Below are positions 1 to 32,000 of a stretch of 32,000 bases of DNA, piece after piece. A program made the position numbers and the translations under genes. Under the pieces are notes generated by a model that was given only the letters and a program-made list of their open reading frames with translations, did not search any database and was not told where the DNA came from. Origin of the DNA: Candidatus Saccharimonadota bacterium (lineage in GTDB: Bacteria > Patescibacteriota > Gracilibacteria > Absconditabacterales > Absconditicoccaceae); contig CP006913.1 in the NCBI GenBank assembly GCA_000503875.1, forward strand, positions 540,001-572,000, given 5' to 3'. How positions within the stretch are numbered: position 1 is the first letter of the stretch; the number at the start of each line of letters is the position of its first letter.

Positions 1-9
1 TATAAAATT

Positions 10-291
10 TTAATTATCAATAACTGAGTTAACAACAATAGAATTACCTATTTTTTCATGTTTAGCATTATCAAATAATATTTGTGTATCAGTATATTCA
101 CAAACACCAGAAATTGGTTTTAGAGAGTGAAAAACAGTTCAATTATCATATAATGGTGATTCTATATCTTTCAGCTTTCACAAAAACTGGACAATATTTC
201 ATAGTTGTGTCCCCAATGTAACAGTTTCTTGATCACTCAAAGAAATTGCAGCTAATTTCTGTAAACGTAAAAATTCTTCTTTATTAAGCAT
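10..291 (-). CDS. gatC: Asp/Glu-tRNA amidotransferase subunit C (GatC)-like, 93 aa
   Basis: Hand translation with TGA=Gly runs from ATG (complement of 289-291) to TAA (10-12), with 3 in-frame TGA. MLNKEEFLRLQKLAAISLSDQETVTLGTQLGNIVQFLGKLKDIES...NAKHEKIGNSIVVNSVIDN follows the GatC pattern: an N-terminal LAxLxLxxxE helix, then L..I..F...L, then a hydrophobic C-terminal tail. Size is typical for GatC. Confidence 0.7.
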
Positions 292-314
292 ATCTTATAT
301 ATAATAATAAATTA

Positions 315-2861
315 TTAATTAACCTTTATATTAATAGTTCCTTCAACTTCTGGTTTATCACTGTAAGATACTTTTGCTTTGATCGTATATGTTCAAGGAG
401 CATCATATGTTGTAGAAGTACTTATACATTCTCTTCCATTACATTCCAATGTCTTTCCATTTCAAAAGTCCCAATAAATTTTTTCTGGCAATCAGTTAAG
501 GGTTAAACTCATAGGAACTCTATCTCCTATTTTTGCTATCTGCCCAGGATGAGCATCCAAAGTTAAAGTAAGTTGAACCGTTTGTTTTTTTACAATAATA
601 GGATACGATAATACTATTTCTTTTTTCATTCATTTTCTTGTTGTCACTGTTACTTTTGGATTATAAGTTCCATTTTCTTTTGCTTGATCATAATTATAGG
701 TATGATTAACTACTGATTGAGATATATTTTTCTTTATTTCCCCATCTCCAAAATCCCAAGTAAAATAGACTATTTCATCACTTGGATCATTTAGTGTTGT
801 TGTTGAAGCATCCAAAGTAACAGTAAAAGGAGATATTCCCACAGAATCAGGCTTTACCAATAATTTACCAATAATAGCATCTCTATTTACACGAACAACA
901 ATATTTTTTTCTGTTTTAGCATTGGTTGTTGCGTCTTCAATAAGTATTTGTACACGATGCTCTTCTGGCGAGTCAATCGTAAATTCAAATATTTTATTAT
1001 CTGGAGACAATACAGGTACACCATCCAAGCTTACTTTTCTAAGAGCACGAGTATTATTTGGAACAACTGAAATTAAATTTAATTGAAGAACTGTTGGTAT
1101 TTCTGAAATAGTAATTATTTCATCACTAAAGGTATTTATTCCAGATTGTGTAAAAGCAGTGAATTTTGGAGAACCTGGTGATTTATATTGTAAGTCATAT
1201 GTTATTTGAAAATCTGTTGCTCCAACCTCAATATCTTCACTTTCACAAGATCATTTTTTACCCTCATCAGTAATAAATTCTACTTTAAGAGAATACATAC
1301 CAGCTGAAGGGAATTGGTAATCAAAAACTGGTTGTTTTGATTTTGTTGTTGCAAGCGTTTTCTTTCAATCAAGAACCAAATATTGATATTCTACGACACT
1401 AGCGTTAGCTTCCAAAAACTGAACATCAAAAGCATATGCTGTACCCTGAGTATTATTTGCAATAATTTCACAAACAGGAACATCAGACTGTTCTACTCTA
1501 AGTGGAAAAATATAAGCATACGCATTTAATCAAGGAAATCTAACTGAAACAGTATATAGTTTTGCTTGTTTATAAGTATAAGTAAATGTAGACGCATCTT
1601 GTTTATCTGCTTGACCATCACCATCAGCATCCCAAACTATTTTGTAGTCTTGTAAAGAAAAATCTCTAAATACACTTGATGCATCAAATCTGATTTTACT
1701 TGGAACTTTTCCAACAATCATTTCTGTATGAGCATCATTATAAGAAATAGATCATTCAACAGGATTTACTGCAATTTCTGATTCAAAAACCAATGATCAT
1801 GCAGGTATATCTTTTTGAAGTTTTTCTCCCGTTGGTGTATTTGTATAATCAACTTTCAACGTCATAGGATATTCTCCTTTCTTAAAATAGATACAGTTAC
1901 CATCAAACTGAGCAGTAGCCATATTCATAGGTACTGTTTGCCCATTTCCACAGTCCAAAATAACTTGATTAAAAGTGGACTGTCCAAAACTTGGCAAAAC
2001 TTGTCCATTAAAGTAATCAGTATTAAGCGCAAAAGAAATAAGCGAAGGAGCTATTAATTTGATAGTAGAAGTAGATACAAATCATGATCATTTTTCAGAA
2101 TCAAGGACATAGACACCAGTTACTATTAGTCTATTATTGTCTACTATATTATCTACAGAAATTTCTTTAATCATATTCAAAACCTTTGATCACAAAGCTA
2201 TTCATCCAATAAATAATACAAAACCAAAAAATAATCAGATTCAATATCATACTTTAGATTTATTTTTTACACTAACCAATCTATATCCGTTTATAATCAA
2301 CATTCACATAGCCAAGAAGACCAACAAACCAAAGAAAATAACAGAGAAAACTTGTAATAAATTTCTCGTTGTTTCTGGATCTAGACCAACACTAGTAAGT
2401 TGTGCTGGGTTATTAATAAGATAATAAAATATACCTACCAATCAACCAACCAAAACTATAAGTAAAACGAAACATCCTATCAAAAATCCCCTCATAGAAA
2501 GTTTAGATCATTGTGTATTTTGAACAACAGTTGGTTTGTTTATATGATTTGGATTATATCACAAAGCTTCCAAATTTTTGTTGTTTTGTTGATATTGAGC
2601 AGAAATTTGTTGAGCTTGCTGATATACTTGTTGTTTTTGAGCATCAGGCAATTGTGGATTTTGAAGCATCGCAGCCAACTGGTTATATTGTTGTTGTAAC
2701 AATTGTTGTTGCTGAAGTAATTGTTGAATTTGTTGTTGATTTAAAACAGCATCAACCTTTTGAGCAGCTTGTGTTGGTGTTTGTTGCGGAATTTGTTGCT
2801 GTCAAACATTAGCATTTTGCTGGGAATTTTGTCCTGCTTTCTGGAAAAATGGATCAACCAT
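315..2861 (-). CDS. Membrane protein, 848 aa: Gln-rich cytoplasmic N-terminus, three predicted TM helices, at least four extracellular PKD-type repeats
   Basis: Track ORFs 630..1028, 1530..1721 and 1797..1997 share one frame and are separated only by TGA. I read every codon: there is no TAA/TAG between TAA 315-317 and TAG 2907-2909, and the first ATG is at 2859-2861. About 40% Gln over about 90 aa (2560-2840). Hydrophobic helices lie at roughly 2190-2490. PKD signatures: WDADGDGQ (1611-1634), WDFGDGE (738-758), WDFGNG (456-473, where the first Gly is TGA at 462-464). Confidence 0.85.
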
Positions 2862-3004
2862 GGAAAAAAGAGAAATAAGAATAAAAATCCTACGAATGGT
2901 AACAATCTAAAAAAGATTTGCAATGCAAAATCATACAAAAGCACTCACGAAGAACCTTTTAACAAAAAAGTCAAGTCAAATAAACAAAAGGAACCAACCT
3001 ACCA

Positions 3005-3034: not shown

Positions 3035-3068
3035 TTCAATAAGATTTTTTTACGCAGATATCATTGAT

Positions 3069-6000
3069 ATGTCAAAGAAGATCTATCATTACATCAAAAA
3101 ACCTTTTTCAATTAAACAATATATTTGACATTTATGTATCATACTCTTGGTAGGATTAGGATTTTTTTCTATAGTACAAACAATTTTTGCTCAGACACCA
3201 ACTTGATTTTCAGTAACAAACATCAAAAATACAGGTGATTATATCACTACAAAAAATTATGGAACTATTAATTTTTCATGAACAGGAATCCCCTCTCTTT
3301 TTCAACGATCTTGGAATAATGTTTGAAATAATCTTTCAACAATATTTTATGAACCAAAACCAAATGGAAATACAATTTATTTCAACAACTTCGACACTCC
3401 AGAAGTTTTGGAACAAAATCAAGTACCTTTAGCTGATTCGATTAGAGATTTTCCTAACGAAAATTTCACAAACGGTACAATATGAACTGGAAATAATTGA
3501 TGGAGCTATTTGTACAAATATCAAATTCAATCATGAGTAACAACATATATATATCCGTATTATTTTAATAGCGATATTTGTTTTGGAATATATCCACCTG
3601 CAACATCATCAGGAGAAATAGGTACGGATTTTCTTTATCCCACTGATGATATTTCGTGAACGGATTGACGAGAGTGTATACGAATTTGAGATTTTTTACC
3701 AACATATTCATCAGATATTGTATTAGTATCATATATTAGCCAAGGTCCTCACCCTTTAGGTGAGTGGGAATGTACAAGGACCTGTACCTCCATTGAAATA
3801 GAACAAACAAACACACAAAACATATTTAAGATGGTAAATCTGACTTTCAATCAGTGAGAATGAAATTCAGAATGAATGCGAACAATATGAACAGGACCAA
3901 TCACAGATTATAGTTTTGCAAATATAGGAAAAAAATATACCCATCCATGATCTGGTATGCTAGATACTTCATGATACAATAATATCCCAGTCATCCGACA
4001 ACGAACAAGTAATCTAAGTGGAAAAATTAAAATTATAAACAAGATTCAAGATGATGAAAACAATTGTTGAAATGGTATTATTTACAAAATATATACAGGA
4101 ATAATAGAAAATTGAGACACATTAACAGGAGTTAAAAACATAAAAACACATTATCTTCCAAATCTATCAGGCACAACTATAGAACGAAGTTGAAATATAA
4201 GCATAAATGAAAATATTTTCTTTGAAATAAATAATAGTTGAGATAATCAATGTGATGGTACTAGGAATTGGATTCAAATATATGATATTACTGACAATGC
4301 CGAAATAACTGGATGACCAAGTTATACAGAAAACGGAAACTACTGATGAGCATTGAATTTTACAGGAAGTCAACAATATAGTCTGGGTACAGGGATTAAT
4401 CAAAGTACAACAAGTGGAATTACTATAGCAGCGTGGATAAATACAAGAGATAAAAATCAATCACAAGGTATTATTACCAAGAAATTTTCTTATGGAATCG
4501 TTCTAAAACAATGAACCTTGCGAATTTCTCCAAGTACCTATTGGATGCGACATGATACAGGAATTCCTATTGATTCAAACACACGAACACATGTAGCGTG
4601 GACCTACGATGGATCTACTATGCGTGCGTATAAAAATGGTTCACAAATCCGAACGTATAATATAAACTGAGAATTAAACGGAAATGAAAGCGAAGTAATG
4701 ATTGGATATGACGAACTCAATCAACGATGACGAAATGGACAAATAGATGAATTTCGTATGTATGACACCACGTTCACTACAGGACAAATCGAAGAACTTT
4801 ACGAATCAAATCTAAAACTTGTAAATAGCTGAGTAAATTCTTCTTGGAATTTTATCATAAACAAAACAGGCTTAGTTGATGGAAAATATATATATACATG
4901 AATATATGATTGAAAATTAGAATTTTTAAGTACATATTGAGACATAAATAGCCGATATACAACAAATTTTAACGAAATTCCTGTTTGTATAAATTGTGAT
5001 GACGAATATTGTTCTACTTCTAACATAGAAGAATATATATGATATATATCATGATGAATAGAACTATGTAGATCAAATTATAATAATAACGATGATAACG
5101 TACCATTATACAATTTTTATGTATGATGATGAGATCACGAAATAGCTTGAGAATATACATGAATATATGATAATAAATATTCATATATGAATGATGCATT
5201 ATATAATGATATAAATATATGTAACACAGATTGTGAAGACACTGATACTTGTGTATGATCTGTTGATAATTGGACTAATATATGATCATTGCCTATATGT
5301 AAAGCAGGTATACCTTACCAAACATTAACAACAGAGTATTATAATTCATATAAAACAAATAAGTTACCATTTTATAGTACCTGATCAATCCTTGTAGATC
5401 AAAATTGACCAATTTTCATACAAAGAACAGGAGATATTGTTTATGAATCTCAACATCTAATGTTTACAGGAATTTGGTTTGATACAGGAATGAGCTGATA
5501 TATAACAACATGATTTGATCGATGACGATGATGGGATTTGAATTGACCTTGGGATATAGCAACCAATGGAGAAAATAGTATGGATTTTTGAACAGAGAAT
5601 GAACCAATAAATAAACAAATAAGAATAAGAGTAAAAGATCATGTTAGTAATCGATCATATCGAACATGAATGATTTTTCGATTAAATACTTGACCTGTTA
5701 TCAATGACATAAAACATACCTATACATGAATAGTGGAAGATACTATAACATTTATAGCTTCTGGTTATGATATATGAAATGAACCATTAAGATACCAACG
5801 ATATAATTGAACTTGATGTTTTTATAGTTCTCTTATACAAGGAGAAAGTTGATCAACATTTTCAAAAAACAGTCAAACAGAAACCTGAATCTATTTTTCT
5901 TATAAAATAATAGATACTCAATGATTATGATCTTGTTGGAGTATAACAGGACAACGAGAAACACCTGATGTTGATGCAATAGTACCATCAAATAACTCTT

Positions 6001-9000
6001 GATCATATGCTCGACAGACACCAATCACAGGAACTATTATTTTTTCTTGAAATATAGGGACATGTACAGGAGATAATGAATATACTTATTATATAGGTAC
6101 ATGAATAGGTAATGATTATTGTATTGTTCAAAATTGAGAAAATCAAATAGTTCTCTGACGATACGGAGTAAATAAGTATCTTACCTTGTTTTCACAAACA
6201 GGGACAAGAATAAATCCATATCTTATAAACGAAAATATACAACCATTTATTATTGAATTCCAAAATACTAATCTTACATGATTTGCACGATCAGTAAGTG
6301 GAACCAACAATAATAGAAAAGTTGAAAGTCAGATTTATAATTCATGATTAATAGGATTATATAATTTTGATAAAATTTTGCTTACCGATTCCGAAAAAGA
6401 CTTTTCAGCTATTCAATCCGGGAAAAATCGATCATATTGGAGAAGACCAAAAGGTACTGGAATATATGAATTGCTTCAATATTATGCTCCAAGTCAACAA
6501 CGAATTATTAGTACACCTATAGAAGAGTTTGATTGATTATTTATAGAAAAAAATGAATTAAATCCTGGTTATAATTATGGAGACACAATTCTTTGACGAA
6601 CAAGTCCTGTTAATTCTACGATAGAAATTCAATATACATTAACTGATGCCAACACTAGTTGTGGAGATGGAATTCAATATAAATTATTAAAAAACAATAC
6701 TACTACTGTATTAGCAACATGAGCTTTTGAATCAAAATCAGTAATTACACATATAGCTAGTTGAGACACTATATATCTTGTAGTAAATAGTTTAAATAAC
6801 AATGATTGTGATAATACAAATTATAATATTAAAATTTATCAGCTTCCAGAATCAAATCTCGGAACAAAATGAAATTATCAATGAACAAATTCATGAGCTC
6901 TTTATACCAGTGGAAAATATAATGGAGCATTAAGCTTCTCTGAAAATAGTTATATAACTATATGAACTGGTATACAATCAGGACATATGAGTATAAGTGC
7001 TCGAATATATAAATCATCATGAGATCAACAAACAATTATCCAAAAACGATGATCTTATGGAATGGTTATTTTCAATAATACGTTACAAGTAGCAAACCAA
7101 AATACTATTAGACGATATGATACTCAAATTTCATTACCAGATGATACACGAACACATATCGGTCGAAGTTATGATGGAATTACAATGAAAGTATATATAA
7201 ATGGTAAACAACAACGATCAAACACTATCGTAGGTACAATACCAAGCAACAATTATCCTATAAATATAGGATATAGTTTTTCTAATGGACTACGAAATGG
7301 ATTGATTGATGAAATGTATATATATAGCTATGCTGTTGATAGTGGTGTATTTGCATCATTATACAATCATAATCTCAATAGAATAGCTTGGGATAGATGG
7401 CAACGAAAAAGTAATCAAAGTTGATCAATATATGATTGAAGATATTCTTTCGAGACAAAAGTAAATTGAATACCAACAAATACATGAGAAATTATAAGAG
7501 ATTTTTCAGCTCCTCTATTTACAGGCTTTATTGGACTTACTGGACGAGAATCAACATGACTTATAATAACAGGTTTTTCATATGATAGTGGTTATTCTAT
7601 TTCTGGATATCAATTTAGATATAATTTAGAATGATTTCGAAGTGAGCGATCAAATATAAGTACAGGTAATTCTTTTATCATAAATAAACAAGATGAACCA
7701 ATTACATGATTGGTAGAAATAAAAATAAAAGATTTTTTCTGATATGAAACAATAGGAACAGGAATAATAGATCGAATAAATACAGGACCAATTATTGTTT
7801 GAGATAATGAATTTTATGGAAAATTAGGACAAAATATTGCTTTAATAGCTTCTTGATATGACACAAATTGATGACCATTGACCTATAAACGATATACCAA
7901 TAATGACTGTATTATAAGTAATCAGATTCTATGAAAAACTTGAAGTACATTAATAACATGAAGTACAATCACAGGAACTACTTATTTTTCTTATCAAATA
8001 TTTGACAAACAATTATCTGGAACATGTTTCAATATTTCTTGAACACGAACTGAAGATACAATGTTTATAGACAATACAAAATATTTTATTGGAGATGGAA
8101 GTTGATGAATAATAAGCTGAGAAATATTTCCTCAAGGAGTGAAAATCATAGAAAATGCAAAATATTGAGAATGTTTATTAACTGGTAATAAAGAAATTAT
8201 CAATTATATACCTAACACCTGATCAAAAGAAAATGATAGTTGTATCGTAGAATTAATACATGGTATATACACCGTAGCAGCTTTTAAAAACATTAATACA
8301 TGATTCATTTATTCACGAATACCCGAAATAACATGAATAACAAAAGATATTAAAAACATTACTTGGAAATGAATATTACAAACACCAGTTATTTCTTCAT
8401 TTACAGGCACTTGGAAATGAGAAACAGCACAATGATCTGGAATATTAACAAATAATATTAATATAAATACAAATAATTTAATTAGAAAATATAGTTTTGA
8501 TAGAATTGAAATAACTGATTCTACAAAAGATTTTTGATATTTTTCATGAGAACATGGACGAAAATACTTATGGAATAATGGTACAAGTGGTTGAGAATTA
8601 GTATTTAATCCAAGAACAAAAAACCGAATTATAAATGAACCTCTTCAAGATTATGAATATATATTTATAAATAATTGATCAGCATATCCTTGAGCAACAA
8701 AATATGGTGATATTATCTATGAACGAACAAGTAATGTTACAGGAAATATAAATATTGAAACTATGATAGATAATGCAAATACTTCATCATGTCCATCAAG
8801 TGATGGAATTATCTATCAAATCAAAAAAGAAACTACTACGTTATATACCAAGGACTATGAAAATACAAAAACTATTAGCAATGATATACAAACTACAGGG
8901 ACTTCTATAAGTTACGGAGATAAACTATATTTTATTATAAATTCAAAAGAAAATAATCAATGCGATAAGATAGATTTCAATGTGAAAATATATCAGAATG

Positions 9001-12000
9001 AAACAAATGATTATTCACTATCATGACAACATATTATAAGTTATTGAGCAATATCCGATAACGGAAAATTTTATTGATGATACAGTATATGATCAACAAC
9101 TGGACAATATTTAAATATAGGAACTATAAATAAAGGAACAGAATTAACATTTAGTACATGGATAAAAACTGTTTCAACAGCAGATCAAACAATAATCTAT
9201 AAACAATGATCTTATGGTCTTGCAATAAAAGATAATGAATTAAAGGTTACAACTGATTGAGCACGACGATATCCAACAAATGCTCAAACAATAAATACAT
9301 TAACAAATTCATTACGAAATCATCTTGTACGAACATACGATGGAACAACAATGATTATTTATCTAAATGGTAATCAAACACGATCATGAAGAATTGTTGG
9401 TTACTACCCTAGCAATAGCAATCAAACAATTATTGGACGAGATACTAATCATGGACAATTTAATTGATCATTAGATGAATTACAAGTATGGAATAAAACA
9501 CTTAGTAATAGTGAAATTCAAAATCTATATAATACACAACTTTCCAAAATTGACAGCCAAAGTCGAGAATTTTCTTTGATACAAACAGGCTTGGCTGATG
9601 GTAGATATATGTTTACAGGATATATAAATGAAACAGAAATGTTTACAGGAGCGACTATTGTTGATAATGATCCCCCAATACTAGAAGTTGCACCAATATA
9701 TACAGGCGATGAATGAACCGGTATTATAGTAACAATTACATGATCAGATAATGGAATATGAGAAATTTCGTGATATCAATATTCATTATTACTTACTAAT
9801 GGTAATCCATATTCAACACGATCAACAGGACGAATAACATGAAATACTATTCTTATTCCAAGTCAAAATGAACCTATAAGCTGAATATTAACTATTTTAG
9901 CGAAAGATAGTTTATGACATCAAACAGGTACAACTACTATTATACAATGGAATAATGTAAAAATAATACCAACAGATCTAATAAATTCAGGAAATGAAAC
10001 AACTAATTTATCATTTACAGCCTCAGGTTATGATCCTGGTGGAAGCACATCTACAGGATATCAATGGTATCTTTGAAATAATTGTTTAGGCGCAGTTATC
10101 TTATCAGGTAAAACATTTACAACAGGAAGAAACGAACCTACTACAGAAATTTTTTCATATACAATGACAGATAAACAATGATTATCTTGAATTTGTGGTG
10201 TAGCAACTGGTATACGAAAAAATATAACACCAACAGCACAAGATCTTTTCAAAAATGGAAATGGAAATACCGGAATCACATTTATTGCTTCAGGTTATGA
10301 TCCTGGTGGAACACTGTTCTCCGTTGCTTGGTATAGAGGAAATGAATGTATATGAACCCCTATATCAACAAACATTGATTTCACTACAGGAAGCTTCCAA
10401 AGCGGTACACGAGCATTTTCTTATTATCTACGAGATAATCAATGAGCTACATGAACAAATAATTGACGTTTATGTCAAATAGCAACAGGATATCGACCAC
10501 ATATCAATCCTATTGCTCACGATTTTACTATTAATTCAAATACAGCAAACGTAGCATCTACTTCAAATCGAAGACTTTGATCAGAAGCACGAGACTCTGA
10601 ATTTAATTTATCAGTAAATGCAACTATTAGTTCATGATCAAAGGGATATTGCCAACTAAATAATGATTGGATTTCATTTCAACCAAATACAAACCAAATA
10701 GGAACAGGATTCTGTGAACTCAGATTAACTGATAATAACAATGGTATGACATATGTAAAAGCATATGCACTTAATATAGATACTACACCACCACAGACAA
10801 ACAGTTCAGGAACAAACGAAACTACCAAATTAATATATAACGATACATCAACAGGAACTACATATTACAAAATTCTAACAGGTGTTTGGAGCTCTAGTTC
10901 ATGTGGAAATTCATGATACACAACGTATAGTTCATGAACAACAATAACAATACCATATATTTCTGGATTCAATGATAATAAAACACTTTGTTATTATAGT
11001 ATGGATGTACACGGAAATACTGAAACAGCAAAATCCGAATTATTTAATCAAGATACAGCAAAACTAAGTGCAAACGTTTCATCTAATATATATATGAATA
11101 CGTTATTTCAGGCAACAATATCTGTAAATAAAGCATGTTCAGGAACATTAACTGGATTATATGGAGAGCAGCCACTTGTATTTGCTACTGCAGGAACATA
11201 CTCAATAACAGGATCTTTTCTAGAAACAAGCTGACCAAAAACAGCATATATTTTCTTGCAAACAAACAATCCAGAAGAAGGTATATTCTCATATAATAAT
11301 ACATTTACCATAGATCAAATAGCTCCAAATACGCCAATTATCACAGAAAATTTACAATATAACGATTACTATTCTATCAAACGAAGTTCATCAACAGATT
11401 GATGAGCGGGTATGCTTTGATATAATTATCAAATAAGTAATGGAGAAAATATTATAAAAAATTGATTTACTGAAGTAAACTATCTCAACATCTTTAAATC
11501 TGAAGTACAAAACAACAGTCAAATTTCTATCAAAGTACAAGCTCAAGATAAAGTAAATAATACAAGTTCACGATCTACACCTACAACAATTACTATATCA
11601 TCACAACAAACAACGACTATTGATACTACACCAAACCAATTTATATTTACAAAAGTAACAAATGCAAAAAGAGATACAGAATATACTTCAAATGAAATAG
11701 TAATTTGATGATTGAGTACAAATACAAGTATTCCAATAACACTTTCGAATTGAACATTATTTATTAATGACACAAACGTAACTAATTCTGGAACAGTAAA
11801 AAATGGAGATATTGTATATATAAAATTAGATTCAAGTGATACATATAGTGAAACAACTAAAGCAACATTATTGGCAAATAATATAGCAGCAACATATAAT
11901 ATAACAACAGAATCTAAAAATACTTGATCTACAACATCATTCTTAGATGAATTAAAGAAATTATTGGAACAATTAAAAGATGAAGATACAACAGGAACCA

Positions 12001-12182
12001 CAACAAGTACTGGTATTGATACCAAATGGATAAGCGCTCCTTATATAGCTGCAAACGGAAAAACATATAATCTATACAAAACTCTCGATGGTAAATATAG
12101 TGCTTATAATTTTATTTATAAAAAGACATTTAATTCTCTTACAGAATTAAAACAATATATTAACAAAAACAATCCTAGATAA
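3069..12182 (+). CDS. Giant secreted surface protein, 3037 aa: three LamG/concanavalin-A-like lectin domains plus Ig-like and Fn3-like repeats
   Basis: The frame is open from ATG 3069 to TAA 12180-12182. It was read codon by codon and only TGA interrupts it. It joins track ORFs 7062.., 8763.., 11001.. and 11964.., all in the same frame. The N-terminus MSKKIYHYIKKPFSIKQYIGHLCIILLVGLGFFSIVQTIFAQ looks like a Sec signal peptide. It has three LamG domains and four ASGYD Ig-like domains (5757, 7848, 10020, 10287). There is a CYYSMDVHGN motif (10989-11018) and an Fn3-like STDGGAGMLGYNYQI (11391-11435). Confidence 0.85.
4350..4809 (+). other. LamG (Laminin_G_3-like) lectin domain 1 of the 3037-aa protein
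   Basis: ALNFTGSQQYSL...ITIAAWIN...THVAWTYDGSTMRAYKNG...GQIDEFRMYDTTFTTGQIEELY. Confidence 0.75.
6924..7376 (+). other. LamG domain 2
   Basis: GALSFSENSYITI...MSISARIY...THIGRSYDGITMKVYINGK...GLIDEMYIYSYAVDSGVFASLY. Confidence 0.7.
9096..9539 (+). other. LamG domain 3
   Basis: QYLNIGTINKGTELTFSTWIK...NHLVRTYDGTTMIIYLNGN...GSLDELQVWNKTLSNSEIQNLY. Confidence 0.75.
12042..12179 (+). repeat. C-terminal NGKTY module, single copy, at the extreme C-terminus of the 3037-aa protein
   Basis: YIAANGKTYNLYKTLDGKYSAYNFIYKKTFNSLTELKQYINKNNPR followed by the stop. Confidence 0.7.
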
Positions 12183-18800: not shown

Positions 18801-18801
18801 A

Positions 18802-20229
18802 TTAAAGATTAATGACTTTCACATATGGAGAAACAGCATTACCTTCAACAACATCATTGATAACAATTATTTTTTGTCCCTTCTTAACGAATCAATTTGA
18901 TTCTAAATAAGCAAGGGCTTTTTTTTCATCTTCTATTGGATATTTCCCCCAAGATTCGATTAAGAAAGGATAAATAGCAAATAAGAAATTCATAGACCTT
19001 AAAACCTTAAGATCTTTTGTAAACGCAAAAACCGTATGATTCGGTTTATAAGCAGAAACAACTCTAGCCAAAAATCATGAATTAGTAAACAAAAGAATAT
19101 AATCTGCTTTTACTTGGTCAGCAACAAATAAGGCATTTTTTGCTATCATTTTTTTATCTAAAGCATAATCAGTAGTAAAGGTTATTTCAAAATCTTTATG
19201 TTTATTGTTTGTATGTTGTTCCGCTTCAAGAATAACATCCGTCATCATTTGACAAGATTGAATAGGAAATTTACCAACAGCTGTTTCGTCAGAAAGCATA
19301 GTACAGTCTGTTCTCAAGATAACAGAATTATATACATCAGAAACTTCTGCTCTTGTAGGAAATGGAGATTCTACCATACTTTTCAAAAGTTCTGTTGCAA
19401 CAATAATAGTTTTTCCATACGTAAAACATGTATCCATAATAACTTTTTGATGATATGGAAGTGTAGAAATTTCTATTTCAACTCCTAAATCCCCTCTTGC
19501 TACCATAATACCATCAGATTCTTTTACTATTCATTCTAGATTTGCCAATGCTTCTTGGTTTTCTATTTTGGAAATAATTTGAATATGTTCTGCATTATGC
19601 TGTTTCAATAAACTTTTTATTTCAATAACATTAGTTTGATGTCTAATAAATGATGCAGCAATCAAATCAATATTATGTTCAATAGCAAATAATATATCAG
19701 ATTCATCTTTATCGGTAATACCTGGTAGCTTAAGATTAACTCCCGGTAAATTAACATGTCTTCTAGATCAAATACTATGATCATTCAATGCTTCTACAAC
19801 AACATAAGTAGGTGTTACTTTAATAACTTTTGCTTTTAGTAATCAAGAATCAATAATAATAATCTGATCTTTTTTTACATCTTCCAATAAATAATTATAA
19901 TCACAAAATATATCTTGAGGCTCAACCAATAACGATTCATCAACAAAAATTTTAAAATGATCTCATTTTTTTACAATTACTTTTTCTTGAACATTTCCTG
20001 TTCTAATTTCTGGTCACTTTGTATCTAATAATGTACTTAAATTAGTTTTTCATGAGTCATTAAGGTCTTTAATAATTTCTAATAATTTAGCAACAGCATC
20101 CTGTTGTGCGTGAGAAAAATTAAATCTAATAATATTTGTTCAAGCATTATAAAGATCAATAAGTTTCTCTTCATTACAGTTAATGTCCGAAACAGTAGCG
20201 ATAATTTTGGTCCTTTTTATGGATTTCAT
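18802..20229 (-). CDS. pyk: Pyruvate kinase, 475 aa
   Basis: ATG (complement of 20227-20229) to TAA 18802-18804. Motifs: KIIATV, NIIRFNFSH, LLDTKGPEIRTG (the first Gly is TGA at 20014-20016), MVARGDLGVEI, TELLKSM, and FTNSGFLARVVSAYKP. Confidence 0.92.
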
Positions 20230-20252: not shown

Positions 20253-21761
<1,509 letters not shown>

Positions 21762-21911: not shown

Positions 21912-23183
21912 TTAAAAATATTTATCTAACCATTGCCAAAATGATCTGTTCGTATAAGTTGTTTCCGATTCTTCAGTATCTATAGTATTTATAAGGTCTC
22001 CTATAGTAGGCTTATTTTCGTCATAATTTTGAACTAAATAATCTCTATAGGTCATCTTCTTAAAAGTACAAGTTCTATTTGCATAATATCATTTAAGTTT
22101 TCATCCGACACAAAGTCTAAGTTCAACTTCACAAGGGAGATCAATCAATCCAATAGACGATTTATATGCTTTAATAAATTGACCGTTTTTCACTTGTTCT
22201 CACCAAGGAGTAACACATTTAATGTTTGCTGTTGAGGTTTGAGAAACTGAATTAGTGTCGGCTGGTCTTCCTGAACTAGGAGATCACCAAGTATCTATAG
22301 AATCTGATGTTCAATTTATTTTTCCATGAGTATCAAAATTCGATCAATTTAAAGATGGCTCTGTTGGTTGTATAAAAGTATCTTTAGGTTTTTGTGTATA
22401 AGAAATAGCTTCTGGTTTTACATATGAGTATAAAGTATGTTCTTTACATGATTTCTGAGAATAAAAACCAGAAAGTTTACCATTTATACAATATCTTCTT
22501 TGTACATTACAAAGATTAGTAACATCTTTTCTTTGTTCATATGCCAATACAAAATCTCCATTTGCTACATATTCTCCCCAAGAAGTTATACAAACAAAAT
22601 CTTGTTGAGAAAGAGATAATCAAGATGATTGAACTCATGTATCGATAGTGATTCAACTAGGTAAGATAAGGTTATTATCAAGTTCTCCATTAAGAGATCC
22701 AGTAAGAGAAGAATCCTGATTATCAGGAGGAAAATAATCTTTTTCTACAGAAGACGATGGCGTTTGAGGCGAAAGACCTTGTGATGAAGTACTTGTATAT
22801 GATGAATTATTTGACTGTAATGGCATATTTGCCTGTGATGAAATGTTTTCTGAGGGAGTTGTTGCCTGTAACGGAGTATTTGCCTGTGAATCAGTTATTC
22901 AATCTTGAAAAAGATAATCCCAATCACCAGCAGCACCATGTGTTCCAGCTTCAGTAGAATCAATTCACCAGTCATCAGGAGTCCCCGGTAATACGAAAAC
23001 AACTTGATCAGGAGAACTTGATGTTTTTAACCAAAATGACTCCTGCTGCGTAATAACAAGTGCACAGAAAAACATCAAAAACCAAACCACAAAAAATCTT
23101 TTGAGAATTTCTCAAAAAGAAATCTGGCTTTTAAACTGGATTTTTATATTCTTACTAGTTCTTTTTTTATGAGTAATCTTCAT
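21912..23183 (-). CDS. Secreted or membrane-anchored protein with Ser/Thr/Gln-rich linker and two 4-Cys repeat modules, 423 aa
   Basis: ATG (complement of 23181-23183) to TAA 21912-21914, extending track ORF 22344..22547 in frame through TGA codons. The N-terminus has basic residues followed by the hydrophobic FFVVWFLMFFCALVI. The two modules are CITSWGEYVANGDFVLAYEQRKDVTNLCNVQRRYCINGKLSGFYSQKSC (22446-22592) and CVTPWGEQVKNGQFIKAYKSSIGLIDLPCEVELRLCVGGKLKGYYANRTC (22068-22217). Confidence 0.75.
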
Positions 23184-23257: not shown

Positions 23258-24292
23258 TTACTTAATAATACCACTCCCAATACACTCATCCCCTATATAT
23301 GCTACTACGACTTGACCAGAAGCTACTGCTCGTTGTGGTTCATCAAATTTTATATTGATTTTATTGTTTTTTAAAGAAATAAGCGTTGAAGGTTGCGGTT
23401 CTTGCCTATATCTAATCTTTGTTTTTACCTGCAAAGGAAGGCTATATTCTTTTTCTATCCAATGCCAATCTAAAGCAATAAGTGAAGTATGTAATAATTC
23501 TTCATGCGATTTTTCACCGACTACAACAGTATTTGTAATCACATCGGTTTTCACAACATAACATTTAAAATTAAGTCCAAGACCATGCCTCTGCCCTACG
23601 GTATAAAACCATGCACCTTCATGTTTTCCAACAATAGTACCATCAGACATAACAATATTTCCCGTTTTCTTAGGTAATTTTTGTTCCAAAAATTGTTTGA
23701 TAGGCACATTACCAATAAAACAAAGTCATTGACTATCGGGACGATCAGCATTGGGAAGTGATATTTCTTGTGCTATTTTTCTAATTTCGGGTTTTGTAAG
23801 ATTTCATAAAGGAAATAATGATTTAGATAATTGATATTGATTCAATCCTGCCAAAAAATAACTTTGATCTTTATTATAATCAATTCATCTCAAAAGCTTA
23901 TATTGTCATAAATTTTCAACTATTCTAGCATAATGACCCATAGCTATTTTATCAAATCACAAAGCTAATGCTTTTTCCAAAAATACATCAAATTTAATCA
24001 GACTATTACAAAGAACATCTGGGTTTGGTGTTATTCATTTAGCATAGCCATCATAGATATATTGGATAATTCTGTCATTATATTCTTGCTGCATATCGAA
24101 AGATAAAAGTTCTATTCCAAGAAAATCAGCAACTTTAATAGCTTCTTGTGCATCATCATATGTTGTACAGGTTCAACTCTCTGATACATAATTTTTCATA
24201 AAACCTCCAACAACATCAAAACCTTGTTGCTTCAAAAGATATGCAGCAACAGCAGAATCAACTCATCATGATAATCAAACTAATACACGCAT
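23258..24292 (-). CDS. mnmA: tRNA-specific 2-thiouridylase MnmA, 344 aa
   Basis: ATG (complement of 24290-24292) to TAA 23258-23260. The PP-loop MRVLVGLSGGVDSAVAAYLL has three Gly encoded by TGA (24275-24277, 24266-24268, 24263-24265). Other motifs: NPDVLCN, IAMGHYAR, KDQSYFL, DSQGLCFIG, and the C-terminal GQVVVAY..ECIGSGII. Confidence 0.92.
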
Positions 24293-24356: not shown

Positions 24357-24557
24357 CTATTTTTTTTTCGCAGGAGCTTTTTTTGCTACTGGTTTTTTTG
24401 CAACTTTTTTAGCTGCTGGTTTTTTTGCAACTTTTTTAGCTACAACTTTTTTTGCAACTTTTTTAGCTGCTGGTTTTTTTGCAACTTTTTTTGCAACTTT
24501 TTTAGCTACTGGTTTTTTTGCAGGAGCTTTTTTTGCAACTGGTTTTTTAACTGCCAT
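24357..24557 (-). CDS. Histone H1-like / Hc1-like Lys-Ala-Pro repeat protein (putative nucleoid protein), 66 aa
   Basis: ATG 24555-24557 (complement) to TAG 24357-24359. An in-frame TAA lies two codons upstream of the ATG. The sequence is MAVKKPVAKKAPAKKPVAKKVAKKVAKKPAAKKVAKKVVAKKVAKKPAAKKVAKKPVAKKAPAKKK. It is followed by a terminator-like hairpin. Confidence 0.7.
   Translation of the reverse strand: MAVKKPVAKKAPAKKPVAKKVAKKVAKKPAAKKVAKKVVAKKVAKKPAAKKVAKKPVAKKAPAKKK
24369..24540 (-). repeat. Imperfect short direct repeats inside the H1-like gene
   Basis: Units such as ggtttttttgcaggagctttttttgc (near both ends) and gcaacttttttagctgctggttttttt recur. They encode the AKKxAKKPxAKK periodicity. 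Confidence 0.8.
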
Positions 24558-24703: not shown

Positions 24704-25078
24704 TTACATATTCGTTTTTCTTTGTATCATAATACACGAATTATGAACAATAGTAACTCAATGTTGCAAACATTTCTGTATTGCTACATCACTTTCAGAT
24801 CCCGGTTGCATCCAAATGTTATTAATTCACAATCAAATAGCTTCATCAATTATTTTTTCTGTAATAATTGGTGGTACAACAAAAATAACAACATCAATGG
24901 AAAATGGAATTTCTGATAACGAAGGATATGAAGTGCTTCATAAAATTTTTTGTTCATTAGGATTAATAGGTACGACCTTATATCATCAAGACAACAAATC
25001 TTGAAATATTTTGTTTCCATATTTTTCTGGATTAGCAGATGCACCAACCACTGCATACATAAAATTTTTATCAATCAT
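24704..25078 (-). CDS. CoA-binding domain protein (YccU/YneT-like), 124 aa
   Basis: ATG (complement of 25076-25078) to TAA 24704-24706; it is absent from the ORF track because of 6 in-frame TGA. The sequence FMYAVVGASANPEKYGNKIFQDLLSGGYKVVPINPNEQKILGSTSYPSLSEIPFSIDVVIFVVPP...NNIWMQPGSES...GVTIVHNSC matches the CoA_binding_2 family pattern. The start lies 5 nt after the uvrD stop. Confidence 0.8.
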
Positions 25079-25083
25079 TATTA

Positions 25084-27342
25084 TTACATAACTTGTAAAA
25101 ATCTTTGTTCTATTTTTCTAACACCAAATTTTGGATTATGAAATTTTACAATAGCCAATCATTTCCAAACTTCAAGAACATATCATGTACCAAACAATTT
25201 ATGTTTTACAATATCTCATTCATTTACTTTTGATTCATCTTCAGCAAAAGATGATCATCATCATAAATCATATTTTTTCATCAAATCAACAGAAATTTCA
25301 TCAAGAAATCTACTAGGTGGATTCATTTTTGTTTGTCATCGAGTCATTCTACTATTTGCATAAGAGAAGAAAAGATGGTCCTCTGCCCTAGTAATAGCTA
25401 CATACATCAATCTTCTTTCTTCTTCCAATAATTTAGTATCCATAAGAGAATTTGAAAGTGGAAAAACATGATCTTCCAATCCAACAATAAATACAAAAGG
25501 AAATTCTAATCATTTACTAGAATGTACTGTCATCAATTTTACAGCGTCCAAATTTCAATTTGAATTTTCTGCTATATCTGATAATAATGCAACTTCTTCC
25601 ATAAATTGTCTCAATGCTTCATCTCATGTTTGTTGATATTTTTCTGCCATATTTATTATCTGTCAAATATTTTCATATTTTTCATCAGCTTGAGATTCTC
25701 CTCATTCTTCTTTGACCAAGTAATCTCTATATTTAATAGCTTTTACCATCAAATCAATAAATTGTGCTGGTGCCAAAGAAGGTAACTTATTTCTAAGATC
25801 ATGCATAACACGAACAAATTGATCTAATCCTGATTTTGCTTTTGGTGTAAGTTTAACAATATCTGTATGAAGTTGTTCTAAACTATTATGTATACTCATT
25901 GAATGAGTTGAAGCATATTCTGATAATCTATCTATACTTGTCTTACCTATTCATCTTTCAGGAACATTTAAAATTCTTTTGAGAGATACACTATCTTGTG
26001 GATTTATAATATATTTAATATACGACAAAATATCTTTTACTTCTTTTCTCTCAAAAAATTTAAATGCACCAAATATTTTGTAAGGAATTCATTCTTGAAG
26101 AAATATTTGTTCGAAAGGAGATGATTGAGCATTTGTTCTATACAAAATAGCTATTTGTCATCGTTCTTTTATTTTATCTGTGTCTTTCATTTTTTTGATA
26201 AAATCGATAATATTTGCTGCTTCATCCATTTCACTTCCATGAGAAAAACATACAATTTTATCTGATCATGTTCTATGTGCAACAATATCTTTTTGATATT
26301 GATTAGTATTGTTTTTAATCACTTGATTTCATGCATCTACAATATGAGGACGAGAACGATAATTTGTTTGAAGTTTAAACATTTGAATATCTGGCCAATA
26401 TTTTTTTACATTCAAAAAATTTTCCATCAATGCTCAACGCCATCCATAAATACTTTGAAAATCATCTCCAATCAAAGTAATATTAGCTGATTCTCCAGAC
26501 AACATTTTCATAAGTTCAAATTGAATCCAGTTGGTATCTTGAGCCTCATCTACCAAAATATAAGAAAATTGTTTTTGCCATTTTTGTAATACTTCTGGCT
26601 GTTTTTTAAACAACAAATATGGTAATAATAATAAATCATCAAAATCTAAACTATTAGCCAATTCCAAAGCCTCCTGATATTTTTGATAAATGGTATACAT
26701 ATTATGATCATAATCAGAATTAGCTTGTTTAGAAAACATTTTCGGATCAAATCAATTATTTTTTTGGGTAGAAATAAATGATTTTACTTCTTGTGGTTTA
26801 AAAATATCAACCATTCAAAGTTGTTTAAGTACATCTTTGATTACAGATTGAGATTCATTGGTATCAAAAATTCAAAAATTTTTGGTATATTTCATATCAA
26901 GTTTTTCAATATCTTCTTTGAGCATTTTGAGAAAAATACTATGGAAGGTACCAATCCATTTAAATGAATTTCAATCCAAAATACGAGGTTGGGAAGGTGT
27001 GCTTGATTGAATAGTATTTAAAAAATCATCGATACCATCTCAAGAAGAATTAGTCATAATTTCCGATTCTGATGTAGCATTAGATCATTTGGATTGTAGA
27101 TCTTGTGCAATTTTCACCAATCTTTCCTTCATTTCAGCAGCAGCTTTATTGGTAAACGTAACTGCTAAAATTTTGTTATGATGAATTTGTTTACCAAAAA
27201 TAAGATACGCAATTTTGTAGGTAAGCGTTCTTGTTTTTCAACTACCCGCTCCTGCAATAATCAGACTTGATGTATTTATATGTAATGCAGCTTTTGATTG
27301 TTCTTCATTAAGTTGTGAAGAAACGTAAGATTCAATTTTCAT
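25084..27342 (-). CDS. uvrD: UvrD/PcrA-type ATP-dependent DNA helicase, 752 aa
   Basis: ATG (complement of 27340-27342) to TAA 25084-25086, read codon by codon. Motifs: Walker A AGAGSGKTRTL (Gly is TGA at 27238-27240), [35 protein letters not shown] (Gly is TGA at 26434-26436), [35 protein letters not shown], and [15 protein letters not shown]. Confidence 0.92.
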
Positions 27343-27510: not shown

Positions 27511-27517
27511 AATCAAT

Positions 27518-30500
27518 TTAGAATCCATTCATAGTCAACGTAAGCGTACCACTATAATTACCAGGAGCTTGATTAGCAGGGACATTTACTAAAAGTGATA
27601 CATTGTCAGCACTTACTTTACAAATTTTATTACTTCCTGAAGCTTTCGCAAAGAGCACATAAGGCGCATTATAAAATTGTGTAGCTGTTCCATTATCTCC
27701 TGTACAAGATGGATCACCTTCAACGACAACAGGATCATGAGAGATAAGAAGATTACCACCAGAAATAACATTTGATTTTTCATTAGTTAAATCAGTTGTT
27801 TGGATAGTTAATGTCCATTCTGAAGTAATACCTCTATAATCTTGACAATACCAAGCAGAAGGAAATGTTCCAGTAAAGGTATATGGAATACCAATTTTCA
27901 CTTCTTGAGCATCCATAGTTAGTGATGTTCAGTATACACATTCAGTAACTCATCACGTAATTTCTAGTTTAATATTACCTTGAGATTGTCCTGGTGGTAA
28001 TACTAAATATTCTATACTATCAAATGTTGATATATCTCAAGTTAAATCACTATCAAAATCTATTTCTGCATAAACAATTTTTGTACCATAGTCTCAAGTA
28101 AGTGTCCATTCGTATGTTCATGTATAGCTTAACCACTCACTTCGATTTTCATTATCATTACTAAATCTCATATTCGTTGCTCCTGATGCATCAAGAGAAA
28201 GAAGAACAACTGATGTCAAAGTATATGATTCATCATTATTAATCATAAATGATCAGGTTAATGGTTCTGGTTGAAGCTCCCCTACACCTACGATAGCAAA
28301 ATCAGTAAAGTGAGTAGTTTCAAATTCGACGTATGATAATCATTCGATAGAAACAACTGTTGAACCTGTATGATAATTCCAAGTTACTCAATGATCTTCA
28401 GAATAATAAATACTAATCAATGTTCATAACTCAATTCATTGTAAAGGAACTCTTATAAAAACAGAAGCTGTATTTCAAGATTGATTTTTTATTTGTAAAG
28501 AAGTATCATTTGAACCAAGAAAAATAGCAGAAGCAATACCTGAAAGTAAAAAACTTCATGTATCACTAAAAGATGGTCAATACAAAATTCCTGTATAATA
28601 ATCTCCACTCGTCGTAGTAAATACCAAACCTGAATCCATTTGAACTTCAATTTTATTATCTCAAGTAGATTGCATAATAATAGGAATAGGTAATTCTCAA
28701 TTTGAATCATTTAATCTAATTTTTTTTGTTCCAACAAGAAATCAAGAAACTGAAGCTATTGATCAAGAAAATTTATATCATCCATAAGAAAATTCATTTT
28801 CTACAACAGAAATATCTGAAATATTAGGTACATTTACATAATCTGGTTCTGTACCATACACAACAGTTTTTTGTCGTGTACATCAAATTAAATTAGCAAC
28901 ATCTTGAGTACAAACTTGAAACGAATAAGTAGAACCAACTCAAGTAAAAGTAGTAGAAGGAATAATAGAATTAATACTAAAAAACCATTTATCTATATCA
29001 TATTTATTTAAATTAGAATTATATAATGTCTCTATCTCTCATGATGATAATGCACGATTCCATATACGAACTTCATCAATACGTCAACTAAAATAATAAT
29101 TATCACCATAATATGCAGATGTTGCTCAAATTGAATTAGCATATTTGGACCATACAATCGGTCATGTAAAAGTATTTCAACTTCCAGCAAGGATTCAATT
29201 GATCCAGAGATACAATTTACCCGCTGCTTGATCTCTAGTAGCAACAATATGATACCAAGTATTTGGGTTAAATGGTCAATCTGCGAAAGCAGTATATCTT
29301 GCTGTAGAACTATAGGTATCAAAATATATCCTATCTGTAGCACCAAAAAATGCAAGAGCAATACCTCATTGTGTAGTTGCAACACCAAAAGGAGCTCATC
29401 ATATAATTGTATAATTACCTGTTCATAATGTTGTTTTATTAACCCATACACTATAGGTAAAATCACCCGTCAATTTAACACTAGGAATTCTTATCTTATT
29501 GCTTATTCAATCAAAAGAAAAGGCTCAATTTCGTCTTCAATCATTTATAGGCGTTGCTCAATATATTTTTATTAATTGTTTATATAAAGAAAGATCTACA
29601 ACTTTAGAAGAGTTTTCTCCGAGCGCAGAAACAGTATCAAAATTTAGCATAAGAACAAGTCAGCTATCATAAACGCTAGCTATAGATTCTCAGCTTCGCA
29701 ACCAAGAAAAATTCACTAAGTTATTTTCTAAAATAGTAATTAATCAGGTTAAGATACCTGGATTATAAATAGATAAAGGATAAGCAAAAGATATTCAAGT
29801 AAAATTGACTATTGGCAAAGTGGAATCTACCTTAATCCAATCAACAGAAGATCTTATAGATCAGGTAGTATTTAGGACAGCATCCTGATAAATAAAATCA
29901 AATAATCCATCAGTTACAAAAGAATAATATGGATCAAGACTATTATTTAGTTGTATAAAACGTCATGTATCAGCTCGATGCATTTCTCCTGTGACAGAAG
30001 ATGTTGTTATAATAGCAGGTTCATAAGATACATATCAAGGAGTAGGAATATATCATCATGTATATTCTCCTATATATAATCAAGTTACATCATTTTGTAA
30101 AGATGATACAAGACCAGTTCATGATATATAATTATAAATTACAGATTGAACTTGTCTATTACTATTTTTACCATAGATATATCCTGCAACTGGTGGATAA
30201 AAATCAAGATCCTTTTGCGAATTACACAATCCATCAACATGTAAAAATAGCTCATCAGAAGAAAAAGGATTTACTGCATAATCGCAAGACATAGTAGGCC
30301 CAGTAAGCAAAAGTATTCCTGTAGTTCGTCATAAATAGTTATACGTAGCTCATCCTGTTGCAAAATAACTTGCATTTGGAATTGAAATATTGCTTAAGCT
30401 ACCGTTAGCATACATCTTTATAGTACCAAAATATTTAGTATAATGAGTATAGTATCTATTATCTACATATATTGCATTAATAGTATTATTATAACATTCC

Positions 30501-32000
30501 AAATTATTTACAACATTATATTGTGACCTATTATTAAAACCAATTCAATACCCATTATTATATAATTGTGCATTATTTATAACTCAAGAATTACTACCAT
30601 CTATATAAATTCCATTATTGGTATTATTAAATGATTGAATATTATTTAATGTAGTATAGTTAGAATTATATATCCTAATTCATCAATAAGAACCATTTAT
30701 ACTATTTTGAAATAACTGTACATTATCCACAAAATTATAATGAGAAATATATATATGAATACCTTCTTGAGAATTATTATATGATTGACTATTAGAAATT
30801 GTGGTATAATTTACACCATTATTAAAATAAATTCATCTATAATAATTATAGGTTTCAACATCATTAATAATACCAAAGCTAGATCAATTAATAAAAGAGA
30901 TACCAGCTGATATTGGTGTATGAAATCAAGAAGAGCCATTAGATTTACCATCAAATTTAATTCCATCTATCAAAATATTGTTTAAATTATCAATAGATAA
31001 GGCTGAAGTCGATCAGGTAGTATTATAGAAAGTAACAAGTCCGGATCAAATCAAAGCAGTACAATGTCATAAAAAATTTATAACTCATGTATTTAAATAA
31101 TCTCCTGAAGATAATATATATAAGGTATTTCATTGTAAATTTTGAGGGACTGTTCCAAGTCATGGAGAAAGATATTTGAGCATCATTTTATTAATATCAC
31201 AACTATTCGCTAACCAATTATATCAAGAGAAATAATATTTCTGTATAATATCTTTTTCAGACTGAATGGTGACAGAATCCAAATATATTATCGTATTATT
31301 AAATGTTTTATATATCATACCTCCGGTAGATAAATAGAGGTTTATAGATTTTTCACCATATCATGGTGTTAAAGTAACATTAAAAGTTCCAGTACCATTT
31401 AATATTCAATTCAAAGATCCTCACACAATATCACCTGAAATAGTATATGAACCGGTAAACGCTAAAACGACAACCAATTCCAAGTTTCTTGTTGTTGTAT
31501 ATGTGTCACTATTGATAAAAAAGTCCGCTCACGGAAGAATACTAGTTGGTTCTGCAATAAATTTAGTAGAATCAAAATCTAAAGAAGATAAAACCAAGTT
31601 AGTAGTTCACGAGTACATTACCGGTTGAATTTGTTTCGAAATAGATCATCAATAAATATTAGTTCAAGTTAATGATATATTACTTCTATATCATCTATAA
31701 TCACAATTAGATATTAAATTCAAAAAAGAATTTTGATTTCGATCCAAAATATTAACAGCTAATCAACAATTCATCTTTCATGATCAGGCTATAATTTCTC
31801 AAACATTTCGTCATAATCAAAGATTTTCTAATCATCATGAGATGAAAGATGATGTATTATCTAACTTTACATTACCATAGCTATTATTGAAAAAGCTATT
31901 TTTACCATAAAATTTTGATCCTGTCGAAAAAGTACTAGAAATAGCATATCACATATTATTATATATATTTACATTATTTATTATTGTTCAAGTAGAACGA
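27518..32000 (-). CDS. Giant secreted surface protein, at least 1493 aa (N-terminus beyond window): right-handed beta-helix (PbH1) repeats, LamG domain, Ig-like domains, distinct C-terminal beta domain
   Basis: I read every codon of the minus-strand frame from 32000 down to TAA 27518-27520. There is no TAA/TAG, only TGA. The frame contains track ORFs 27518..27916 and 30119..30310. It includes PbH1-like repeats, a canonical LamG C-terminal motif GRIDEVRIWNRALSSGEIETLY, and MRFSNDNENRSEWLSYTGTYEWTLTGDYGTKIVY. Confidence 0.85.
29012..29527 (-). other. LamG domain of the third giant protein
   Basis: GAFSFDGISNKIRIP...FTYSVWVN...WYHIVATRDQAAGKLYLWINGI...GRIDEVRIWNRALSSGEIETLYNSN. This is the closest of the four copies to the canonical Laminin_G_3 C-terminal motif. 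Confidence 0.8.
30455..31010 (-). repeat. Right-handed parallel beta-helix (PbH1-type) repeats, period about 22-23 aa
   Basis: Consecutive turns: ...ISFINGSSFGIINDVETYNYYRGIYFNNGVNYTTISNSQSYNNSQEGIHIYISHYNFVDNVQLFQNSINGSYGGIRIYNSNYTTLNNIQSFNNTNNGIYIDGSNSGVINNAQLYNNGYGIGFNNRSQYNVVNNLECYNNTINAIYVDN. The recurring pattern is N-x-GI-x-I...N-x-I-x-N. Confidence 0.7.

Follow-up and report, generated by a model that had tools for sequence, protein, structure and literature searches.

Evidence for UGA as a glycine codon and CGA as a tryptophan codon in a 32,000-nucleotide segment of the SR1 bacterium RAAC1_SR1_1 genome

Genes and reading frames

The DNA analyzed here, referred to as the window, is a stretch of 32,000 nucleotides (contig CP006913.1, positions 540,001 to 572,000) with a G+C content of 29%. 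It holds the 14 genes listed in Table 1, and the subject of this report is the genetic code in which they are written. The window is part of the closed 1.18-Mb genome of SR1 bacterium RAAC1_SR1_1, where UGA is very probably read as glycine and CGA as tryptophan, with CGG probably read likewise.

When the standard bacterial code is used, 24 open frames of 100 amino acids (aa) or more are found, 9.4 kb in total, the longest of 257 aa. These frames are close to random, since in 200 base-shuffled copies, with TGA as a stop, the longest frame already reaches 210 codons; their description as short fragments, given in the initial annotation, is appropriate. If only TAA and TAG are taken as stops, the longest frame extends to 3145 codons, whereas none of the 200 shuffled copies exceeds 225; the natural logarithm of the probability of 3146 codons free of TAA and TAG is about -211. 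Under this rule 96% of the window is coding, and neighboring genes lie 1 to 207 bp apart; 12 genes stop at TAA and two at TAG. The same counts of long genes and of stops had been given in the initial annotation, which also noted short spacers. Among the 10,236 codons, TAA and TAG are never found in frame, while TGA is found 373 times, in 13 of the 14 genes.

Near full-length Pfam matches cross TGA codons in pyruvate kinase, prolyl-tRNA synthetase (ProRS), MnmA, UvrD, the GT4 glycosyltransferase and the CoA-binding domain; PKD, Laminin_G_3 and Big_13 domains are also matched by Pfam in window proteins. Homologs that use the standard code conserve the C-terminal domain of UvrD, located past six late TGA codons. 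Gene identities suggested earlier from the sequence are therefore backed by Pfam, with the exception of gatC, which remains a weak assignment (see Table 1 for its sub-threshold match). Scanned against Rfam, the window gave no match.

Table 1. Genes of the window and selected TGA and CGA codons. Residues in homolog columns refer to the 78 standard-code UvrD/PcrA genes, and L081 and L083 to related loci, both described in the text.
Feature	Positions	Strand	Description
GatC-like gene	10..291	-	93 aa, 3 TGA, stop TAA; NCBIfam GatC sub-threshold, E 5e-5
Membrane protein with PKD domains	315..2861	-	848 aa, 21 TGA, 0 CGA; Pfam PKD, PKD_4
Giant surface-type protein	3069..12182	+	3037 aa; 142 TGA, 62 CGA, 27 TGG
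CGA, Laminin_G_3 repeat 1, Trp of W-x-H	4584..4586	+	same column CGA at 7149-7151 and 9315-9317
CGA in HIG(CGA)SYDG	7164..7166	+	paralogs: TGG at 4599-4601 (HVA(W)TYDG), CGA at 9330-9332
Large Ig-like (Big_13) protein	12324..16166	+	1280 aa; 41 TGA, 10 CGA, 1 CGG (15444-15446)
GT4 glycosyltransferase	16183..17322	-	379 aa, 11 TGA, 1 CGA (16231-16233); Pfam
PcsB/CHAP-like hydrolase	17493..18800	+	435 aa, 8 TGA, 3 CGA, stop TAG; NCBIfam PcsB, E 2e-13
Pyruvate kinase	18802..20229	-	475 aa, 9 TGA; Pfam PK, profile positions 2-327/328
Prolyl-tRNA synthetase	20253..21761	-	502 aa, 4 TGA, 10 TGG, 0 CGA; Pfam
Hypothetical protein	21912..23183	-	423 aa, 12 TGA; conserved in syntenic relatives
MnmA tRNA 2-thiouridylase	23258..24292	-	344 aa, 10 TGA, 1 CGA (23330-23332)
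Lys/Ala-rich H1/HC2-like protein	24357..24557	-	66 aa, no TGA, stop TAG; HC2 below cutoff
CoA-binding protein	24704..25078	-	124 aa, 6 TGA; Pfam CoA_binding_2
UvrD/PcrA helicase	25084..27342	-	752 aa, 25 TGA, 2 CGA
CGA at UvrD residue 668	25339..25341	-	aromatic column: Y 29, F 26, W 8, R 2; TGG in L081, L083
TGA at UvrD residue 611 (SSK(G)LEFP)	25510..25512	-	Gly column invariant, as at 27238-27240 (GS(G)KT)
Giant protein with one Laminin_G_3	27518..32000	-	at least 1478 aa, 81 TGA, 8 CGA

TGA as a glycine codon

The initial annotation had read TGA as glycine, on the basis of TGA codons located at glycine positions of known motifs. All of its 17 quoted codon coordinates are in frame, with the codon and the motif reported: they include GS(TGA)KT (27238-40) and GWR(TGA)A (26434-36) in UvrD, DTK(TGA)PEIRT (20014-16), HVE(TGA)FA (21513-15), LS(TGA)(TGA)VDS (24263-68), SE(TGA)F(TGA)S (16423-31) and WDF(TGA)NG (462-64). 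The assignment was evaluated by three independent types of comparison: with homologs from organisms using the standard code, with orthologs at the DNA level, and among paralogous repeats of the window itself. All of them agree with it.

The closest UvrD relatives in protein databases are circular as evidence for glycine, because their own translations follow code 25 or code 4; they were used instead as a test for a mixture of W and G. A standard-code set was therefore assembled from genome DNA, made up of UvrD/PcrA genes without in-frame stops from 78 genomes of many phyla. At conserved UvrD columns where the window has TGA, glycine is present in 78/78 (GSGKT), 78/78 (SKGLEFP), 75/78, 70/78 and 62/78 (GWRGA) homologs; for two further columns, counting only the residues present, the figures are 50/50 and 52/53. 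The seven conserved columns are, in other words, 79–100% glycine. When all 25 TGA columns of UvrD are considered, glycine accounts for 42.7% of the residues and tryptophan for none; the columns of window GGN codons are 62% glycine.

Comparison with solved structures gives a similar picture. Glycine is found at all ten TGA sites of MnmA (9hlv/2hma), at three of four in ProRS (PDB 1h4q), at four of six in the CoA-binding protein (1y81 and 2d59) and at 4/8 and 6/9 sites in the PDB alignments of pyruvate kinase; the conserved TGA sites of the last three proteins correspond to glycine. In GT4, the second TGA of E-x-F-(TGA) corresponds to an invariant glycine among the PDB matches shown; beyond this glycine the GT4 alignments are too distant, and the CGA site of the gene is not reached. 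Tryptophan is not present at any TGA site in these structure alignments, and PDB alignments of six families in total support the placing of UGA on glycine columns.

For the ortholog comparison, three syntenic loci (L081, L082, L083), featuring in a shared order genes for UvrD, the CoA-binding protein, MnmA, the hypothetical protein, ProRS, pyruvate kinase, the hydrolase and GT4, were compared with the window as DNA; a fourth related locus (L001) spans UvrD, for a total of 25 gene pairs from four related genomes. The 271 window TGA codons aligned in this way are paired with TGA in 162 cases, with GGA in 36, GGT in 23 and GGG in 3, and never with TGG. Window GGA codons, in turn, are opposite an ortholog TGA in 68 of 168 cases. 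Because it exchanges with GGN codons and not with TGG, TGA behaves as a synonymous glycine codon. The earlier expectation that tryptophan would break the motifs is supported by these pairs and by the absence of tryptophan from the UvrD columns.

Repeats within the window lead to the same assignment. The glycine of ASGYD is encoded by GGT at 5763, 10026 and 10293, and by TGA at 7854; that of NGKTY by GGA at 12057, TGA at 15846 and GGT at 16038. Similarly, WDF(TGA)NG at 462-464 has a PKD paralog, WDF(GGA)DG, at 747-749. When the Laminin_G_3 and Ig-like repeats are aligned, the top partners of TGA are glycine codons (29) and TGA itself (26).

Composition is also informative: glycine makes up 8.2% of the residues if TGA is counted and 4.5% if it is not. 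TGA represents about 45% of all glycine codons, and in gatC, as noted in the initial annotation, three of six (3 TGA and 3 GGN). Its use is even across genes: the TGA:GGN ratio is 264:302 in the three large surface proteins, against 68:90 in seven enzymes (p = 0.47).

CGA as a putative tryptophan codon

A scan of all codons on the ortholog pairs flagged only two of them, TGA, with glycine as partner, and CGA, with tryptophan as partner, and no further reassignment. The change of CGA had been missed in the initial annotation. The 23 window CGA codons aligned to orthologs are opposite TGG in 12 cases and CGA in 11, and never opposite an arginine codon; window TGG codons, likewise, are opposite an ortholog CGA in 12 of 122 pairs. 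Ortholog CGA is never found opposite window AGA (224 pairs) or CGT (50 pairs). The mixture test on database relatives of UvrD indicates the same exchange, with R making up 43% of the relatives' residues at window TGG codons and W 28–50% at window CGA codons. In the two UvrD CGA columns the 78 standard-code homologs have Y, F, L or W, and R accounts for 7%, as opposed to 70% in AGA columns.

Single sites are consistent with these counts. The tryptophan of the UvrD motif YGWRGA (window residue 301) is encoded by CGA in L083; the GT4 CGA site (16231-16233) is TGG in L082, and the three hydrolase CGA codons (17907-09, 17928-30 and 18123-25) alternate with TGG in orthologs. Among repeats of the window, each of the three belonging to the 3037-aa protein uses CGA for the conserved tryptophan of the Laminin_G_3 pattern W-x-H-(V/I), and the other giant has TGG there (29255-29257). 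CGA and TGG also alternate at the conserved tryptophan of the Ig-like repeats, and in the repeat series AAW/SA-CGA/STW/SVW and in YQ-CGA-Y, YK-CGA-Y, YQWY and VAWY.

According to NCBI table 25, the 63 codons other than UGA are standard; for CGA this is not what is observed. The initial annotation had considered the window interpretable only under code 25: its glycine component stands, while the accompanying value of CGA as arginine does not, as 87 CGA codons behave as tryptophan. For CGG, the exchange of TGG and CGA, codons two positions apart, at strictly conserved tryptophans suggests that this codon, too, may have been tolerated as a tryptophan intermediate.

Source genome and previous reports

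The window UvrD is identical to AHB41334.1 (P148_SR1C00001G0543, candidate division SR1 bacterium RAAC1_SR1_1) except at the 25 TGA positions, where the deposited protein has G; at both UvrD CGA sites it has R, as expected from annotation with table 25. Named relatives of the protein all belong to Absconditabacterales, SR1 or Gracilibacteria. The placement of the organism in Absconditabacteria/Gracilibacteria, reached earlier from the code alone, is therefore correct.

The closed RAAC1 SR1 genome, of 1,177,760 bp, has been described by Kantor et al. (2013, mBio, PMC3812714), who noted that code 11 produced very short open reading frames, reported a tRNA-UCA gene and assigned UGA to glycine from conserved alignment positions; release factors are not mentioned in that paper. 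Since the glycine reading of UGA has been on record for this genome since 2013, the result obtained here for TGA is a correct rediscovery. Using Codetta, Shulgina and Eddy (2021, eLife, PMC8629427) predicted that CGA and CGG encode tryptophan in Absconditabacteria. For GCA_000503875.1, RAAC1_SR1_1, the supplement of that study lists UGA as Gly, CGA as Trp and CGG as '?', along with tRNA genes for the anticodons ACG (0), GCG (1), UCG (1), CCG (1) and CCA (1). Tryptophan identity elements are reported there for the tRNA(UCG) and tRNA(CCG) of the clade, and CGG is called as arginine in a sister species. As far as the genetic code is concerned, nothing is new, both reassignments being already in the literature for this genome. 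The published value of CGA is a computational prediction, to which the window adds independent support.

Proposed decoding

The code in use would correspond to table 25 with CGA, and probably CGG, read as tryptophan. On the literature for this genome, UGA would be read by an added tRNA-Gly with anticodon UCA, and CGA and CGG by tRNA(UCG) and tRNA(CCG) carrying tryptophan identity elements. Release factor 2 has presumably been lost; UAA and UAG are the sole terminators. CGU and CGC would remain arginine codons, read by tRNA-Arg(GCG), with AGA as the main arginine codon.

Some observations weigh against this interpretation. Roughly one in two TGA sites is located in a variable, uninformative column. 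The only CGG of the window (15444-15446, in the 1280-aa protein) is too little to be read. Scans for tRNA genes, covering the window along with the four related loci, gave none, and release factor genes are absent from these sequences as well. Finally, the CGA at MnmA residue 321 (23330-23332) aligns with arginine (P-Q-R-A) in Firmicute structures. The same codon is TGG in three relatives. A comparable site is UvrD residue 272 (26527-26529): the standard-code homologs have R there more often than any other residue, the window codon is TGG and that of L081 is CGA. These two positions may be leftovers of the reassignment, with arginine outside the clade and tryptophan within it.

Alternative readings

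The reading adopted in the initial annotation, plain table 25 with TGA as glycine, CGA as arginine and the rest standard, is also the one used in the deposited annotation, as shown by the R residues of AHB41334.1, and arginine at the position of MnmA 321 fits with it. It appears very unlikely nonetheless: no arginine codon is found among the ortholog partners of CGA, more than half of which are TGG (12/23), AGA and CGT never swap with CGA, and CGA is used at the conserved Laminin_G_3 tryptophan, encoded by TGG in paralogs. The Codetta prediction for GCA_000503875.1 also contradicts it. A different possibility is that CGA is not cleanly reassigned, being decoded ambiguously, as a mixture of tryptophan and arginine, or inefficiently. 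The presence of both tRNA(UCG) and tRNA(CCG) in the genome and the call of CGG as arginine in a sister species (PMC8629427) are compatible with this, as is the distribution of CGA, shunned in enzymes and common in giant surface proteins as if it were costly or noisy. The lack of any exchange with arginine codons and the use of CGA for strictly conserved tryptophans, such as that of YGWRGA in L083, speak against it, and make ambiguity or inefficiency quite improbable.

As for TGA, code 4, with which Mycoplasma and certain insect endosymbionts read it as tryptophan, could be suspected from the low G+C content and from the output of metagenome pipelines, which have placed W at TGA in 82 of 119 database relatives. 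It was rejected, and is hardly conceivable, given that tryptophan is never found at the 25 UvrD TGA columns of the 78 homologs, the conserved ones being all glycine columns, that TGA pairs with TGG in 0 of 271 cases and is freely exchanged with GGN, and that a tryptophan content of 4.5% would result. Pseudogene decay, sequencing errors, selenocysteine and programmed read-through have nothing in their favor beyond the mere presence of in-frame TGA. The probability left to them is negligible, and they were rejected: all of the 373 TGA codons are in frame, spread over 13 of 14 genes and located on glycine columns, they are kept by relatives at 162 of 271 aligned sites and crossed by full-length Pfam matches, and in-frame TAA or TAG is never found. 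The reassignment of both UGA, to glycine, and CGA, to tryptophan, is accordingly the strongly favored reading.

Uneven use of CGA

Overall, CGA and TGG are equally frequent in the window (87:87). Their distribution, however, differs between genes: the three large surface proteins, taken together, have a ratio of 80:45, and the seven enzymes one of 4:27 (Fisher p = 3.7e-7). The 3037-aa giant contributes most, with CGA at 62 of its 3037 codons, about 2%, or 204 per 10,000, and exceeding TGG. Frequencies published for the Pfam-aligned regions of GCA_000503875.1 are 25.7 per 10,000 codons for CGA and 57.9 for UGG (PMC8629427); the low use of CGA was read as an early stage, before codon rebound (Shulgina and Eddy 2021, PMC8629427). 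The rate in the giant is about eight times this Pfam-domain average, and the concentration of CGA in giant surface proteins is a mildly new detail.

A functional meaning of this concentration, such that ambiguous or slow decoding of CGA would generate surface proteins with mixed tryptophan and arginine, or throttle their expression, is quite improbable. Under a less far-reaching and more probable view, CGA would mark tryptophans gained after the reassignment, and the rebound would have taken place already, but only in fast-evolving genes, invisible to Pfam-based surveys. Ancient, conserved tryptophans would have stayed TGG. Newer ones would arise mostly as CGA, because this codon is one mutation away from the abundant AGA, GGA, TGA, CAA, CCA and CTA; internal duplication of repeats would then multiply them.

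Comparison with known codes

Table 25, the Candidate Division SR1 and Gracilibacteria code (Campbell et al. 2013; Rinke et al. 2013), shares with the window UGA as glycine, UAA and UAG as sole stops, a low G+C content and the Absconditabacteria lineage; RAAC1_SR1_1, the source of the window, is one of its founding genomes. The difference is in CGA and CGG, kept as arginine in the table, whereas window CGA behaves as tryptophan. If CGA is tryptophan, table 25 therefore mistranslates 87 window codons (0.85% of residues), halving the apparent tryptophan content.

The change of CGA and CGG to tryptophan described with Codetta (PMC8629427) concerns the same genome and goes in the same direction, with AGA as the main arginine codon and CGG nearly absent. 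In that report, though, CGA is rare, while here it equals TGG, and exceeds it in the giant, a protein outside Pfam-based counts. Code 4, used by Mycoplasmatales, Entomoplasmatales and some insect endosymbionts, has in common with the window a sense UGA, low G+C and a small genome; it differs in that UGA is read as tryptophan by a changed tRNA-Trp, and in SR1 as glycine, according to the literature by an added tRNA(UCA)-Gly (PMC3812714 for the latter).

Consequences for annotation

Proteins of this lineage in public sets carry systematic translation errors. Among the UvrD relatives, 82 of 119 have tryptophan at TGA sites because metagenome pipelines used code 4, which results in a tryptophan content of 2–5.6%, and the protein cluster of AHB41334.1 includes fragments of 65 and 101 aa that derive from annotation with code 11. 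Table 11 breaks these genes up and table 4 writes tryptophan at each glycine UGA. Even table 25 would write arginine at 87 tryptophan positions of the window, the conserved tryptophans of lectin-like domains included, so that no standard table would translate this DNA correctly. As a discovery the result is unimportant, UGA as glycine having been published in 2013 and CGA as tryptophan predicted in 2021, for the same genome: its value lies in annotation practice. A minor point, open to testing, comes from the uneven use of CGA and concerns how a reassigned codon regains usage.

Other features of the genes

The 3037-aa giant has four Ig-like ASGYD repeats in addition to its three Laminin_G_3 domains. 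No close homolog was found among 5.8 billion proteins, the only match being a weak one to Laminin_G, at 27% identity. The C-terminal part of the adjoining 1280-aa protein is a paralog of the last third of this giant. The giant at the other end of the window is probably incomplete: because its frame is open at the window edge, and its ortholog in L083 has 1626 aa, translation probably does not begin at the first ATG (31954), and the 5' end would lie outside the window. Identity to this ortholog is 33% over the aligned part; for the other eight genes it is 47–82%.

In the 435-aa hydrolase-like protein, previously unannotated, the match covers the CHAP-type end of the peptidoglycan hydrolase PcsB. 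If two of its CGA codons are read as tryptophan, the sequence T-W-GGNAID-W-CENAEKAG is obtained, which resembles the CHAP motif WGNA..W. The same protein features a run of 14 threonines, encoded by ACT and ACA repeats (18312-18351). Its gene converges with that of pyruvate kinase, on the opposite strand, with one base between the two stops (TAG at 18798-18800, TAA at 18802-18804); there is no space for a terminator hairpin between them.

The 66-aa protein, weakly matching the histone H1-like HC2, is composed of AKKPAAKK-type repeats, corresponding to 27- and 54-nucleotide tandem repeats in the DNA. Long open frames are present on the strand antisense to its gene, and are spurious.

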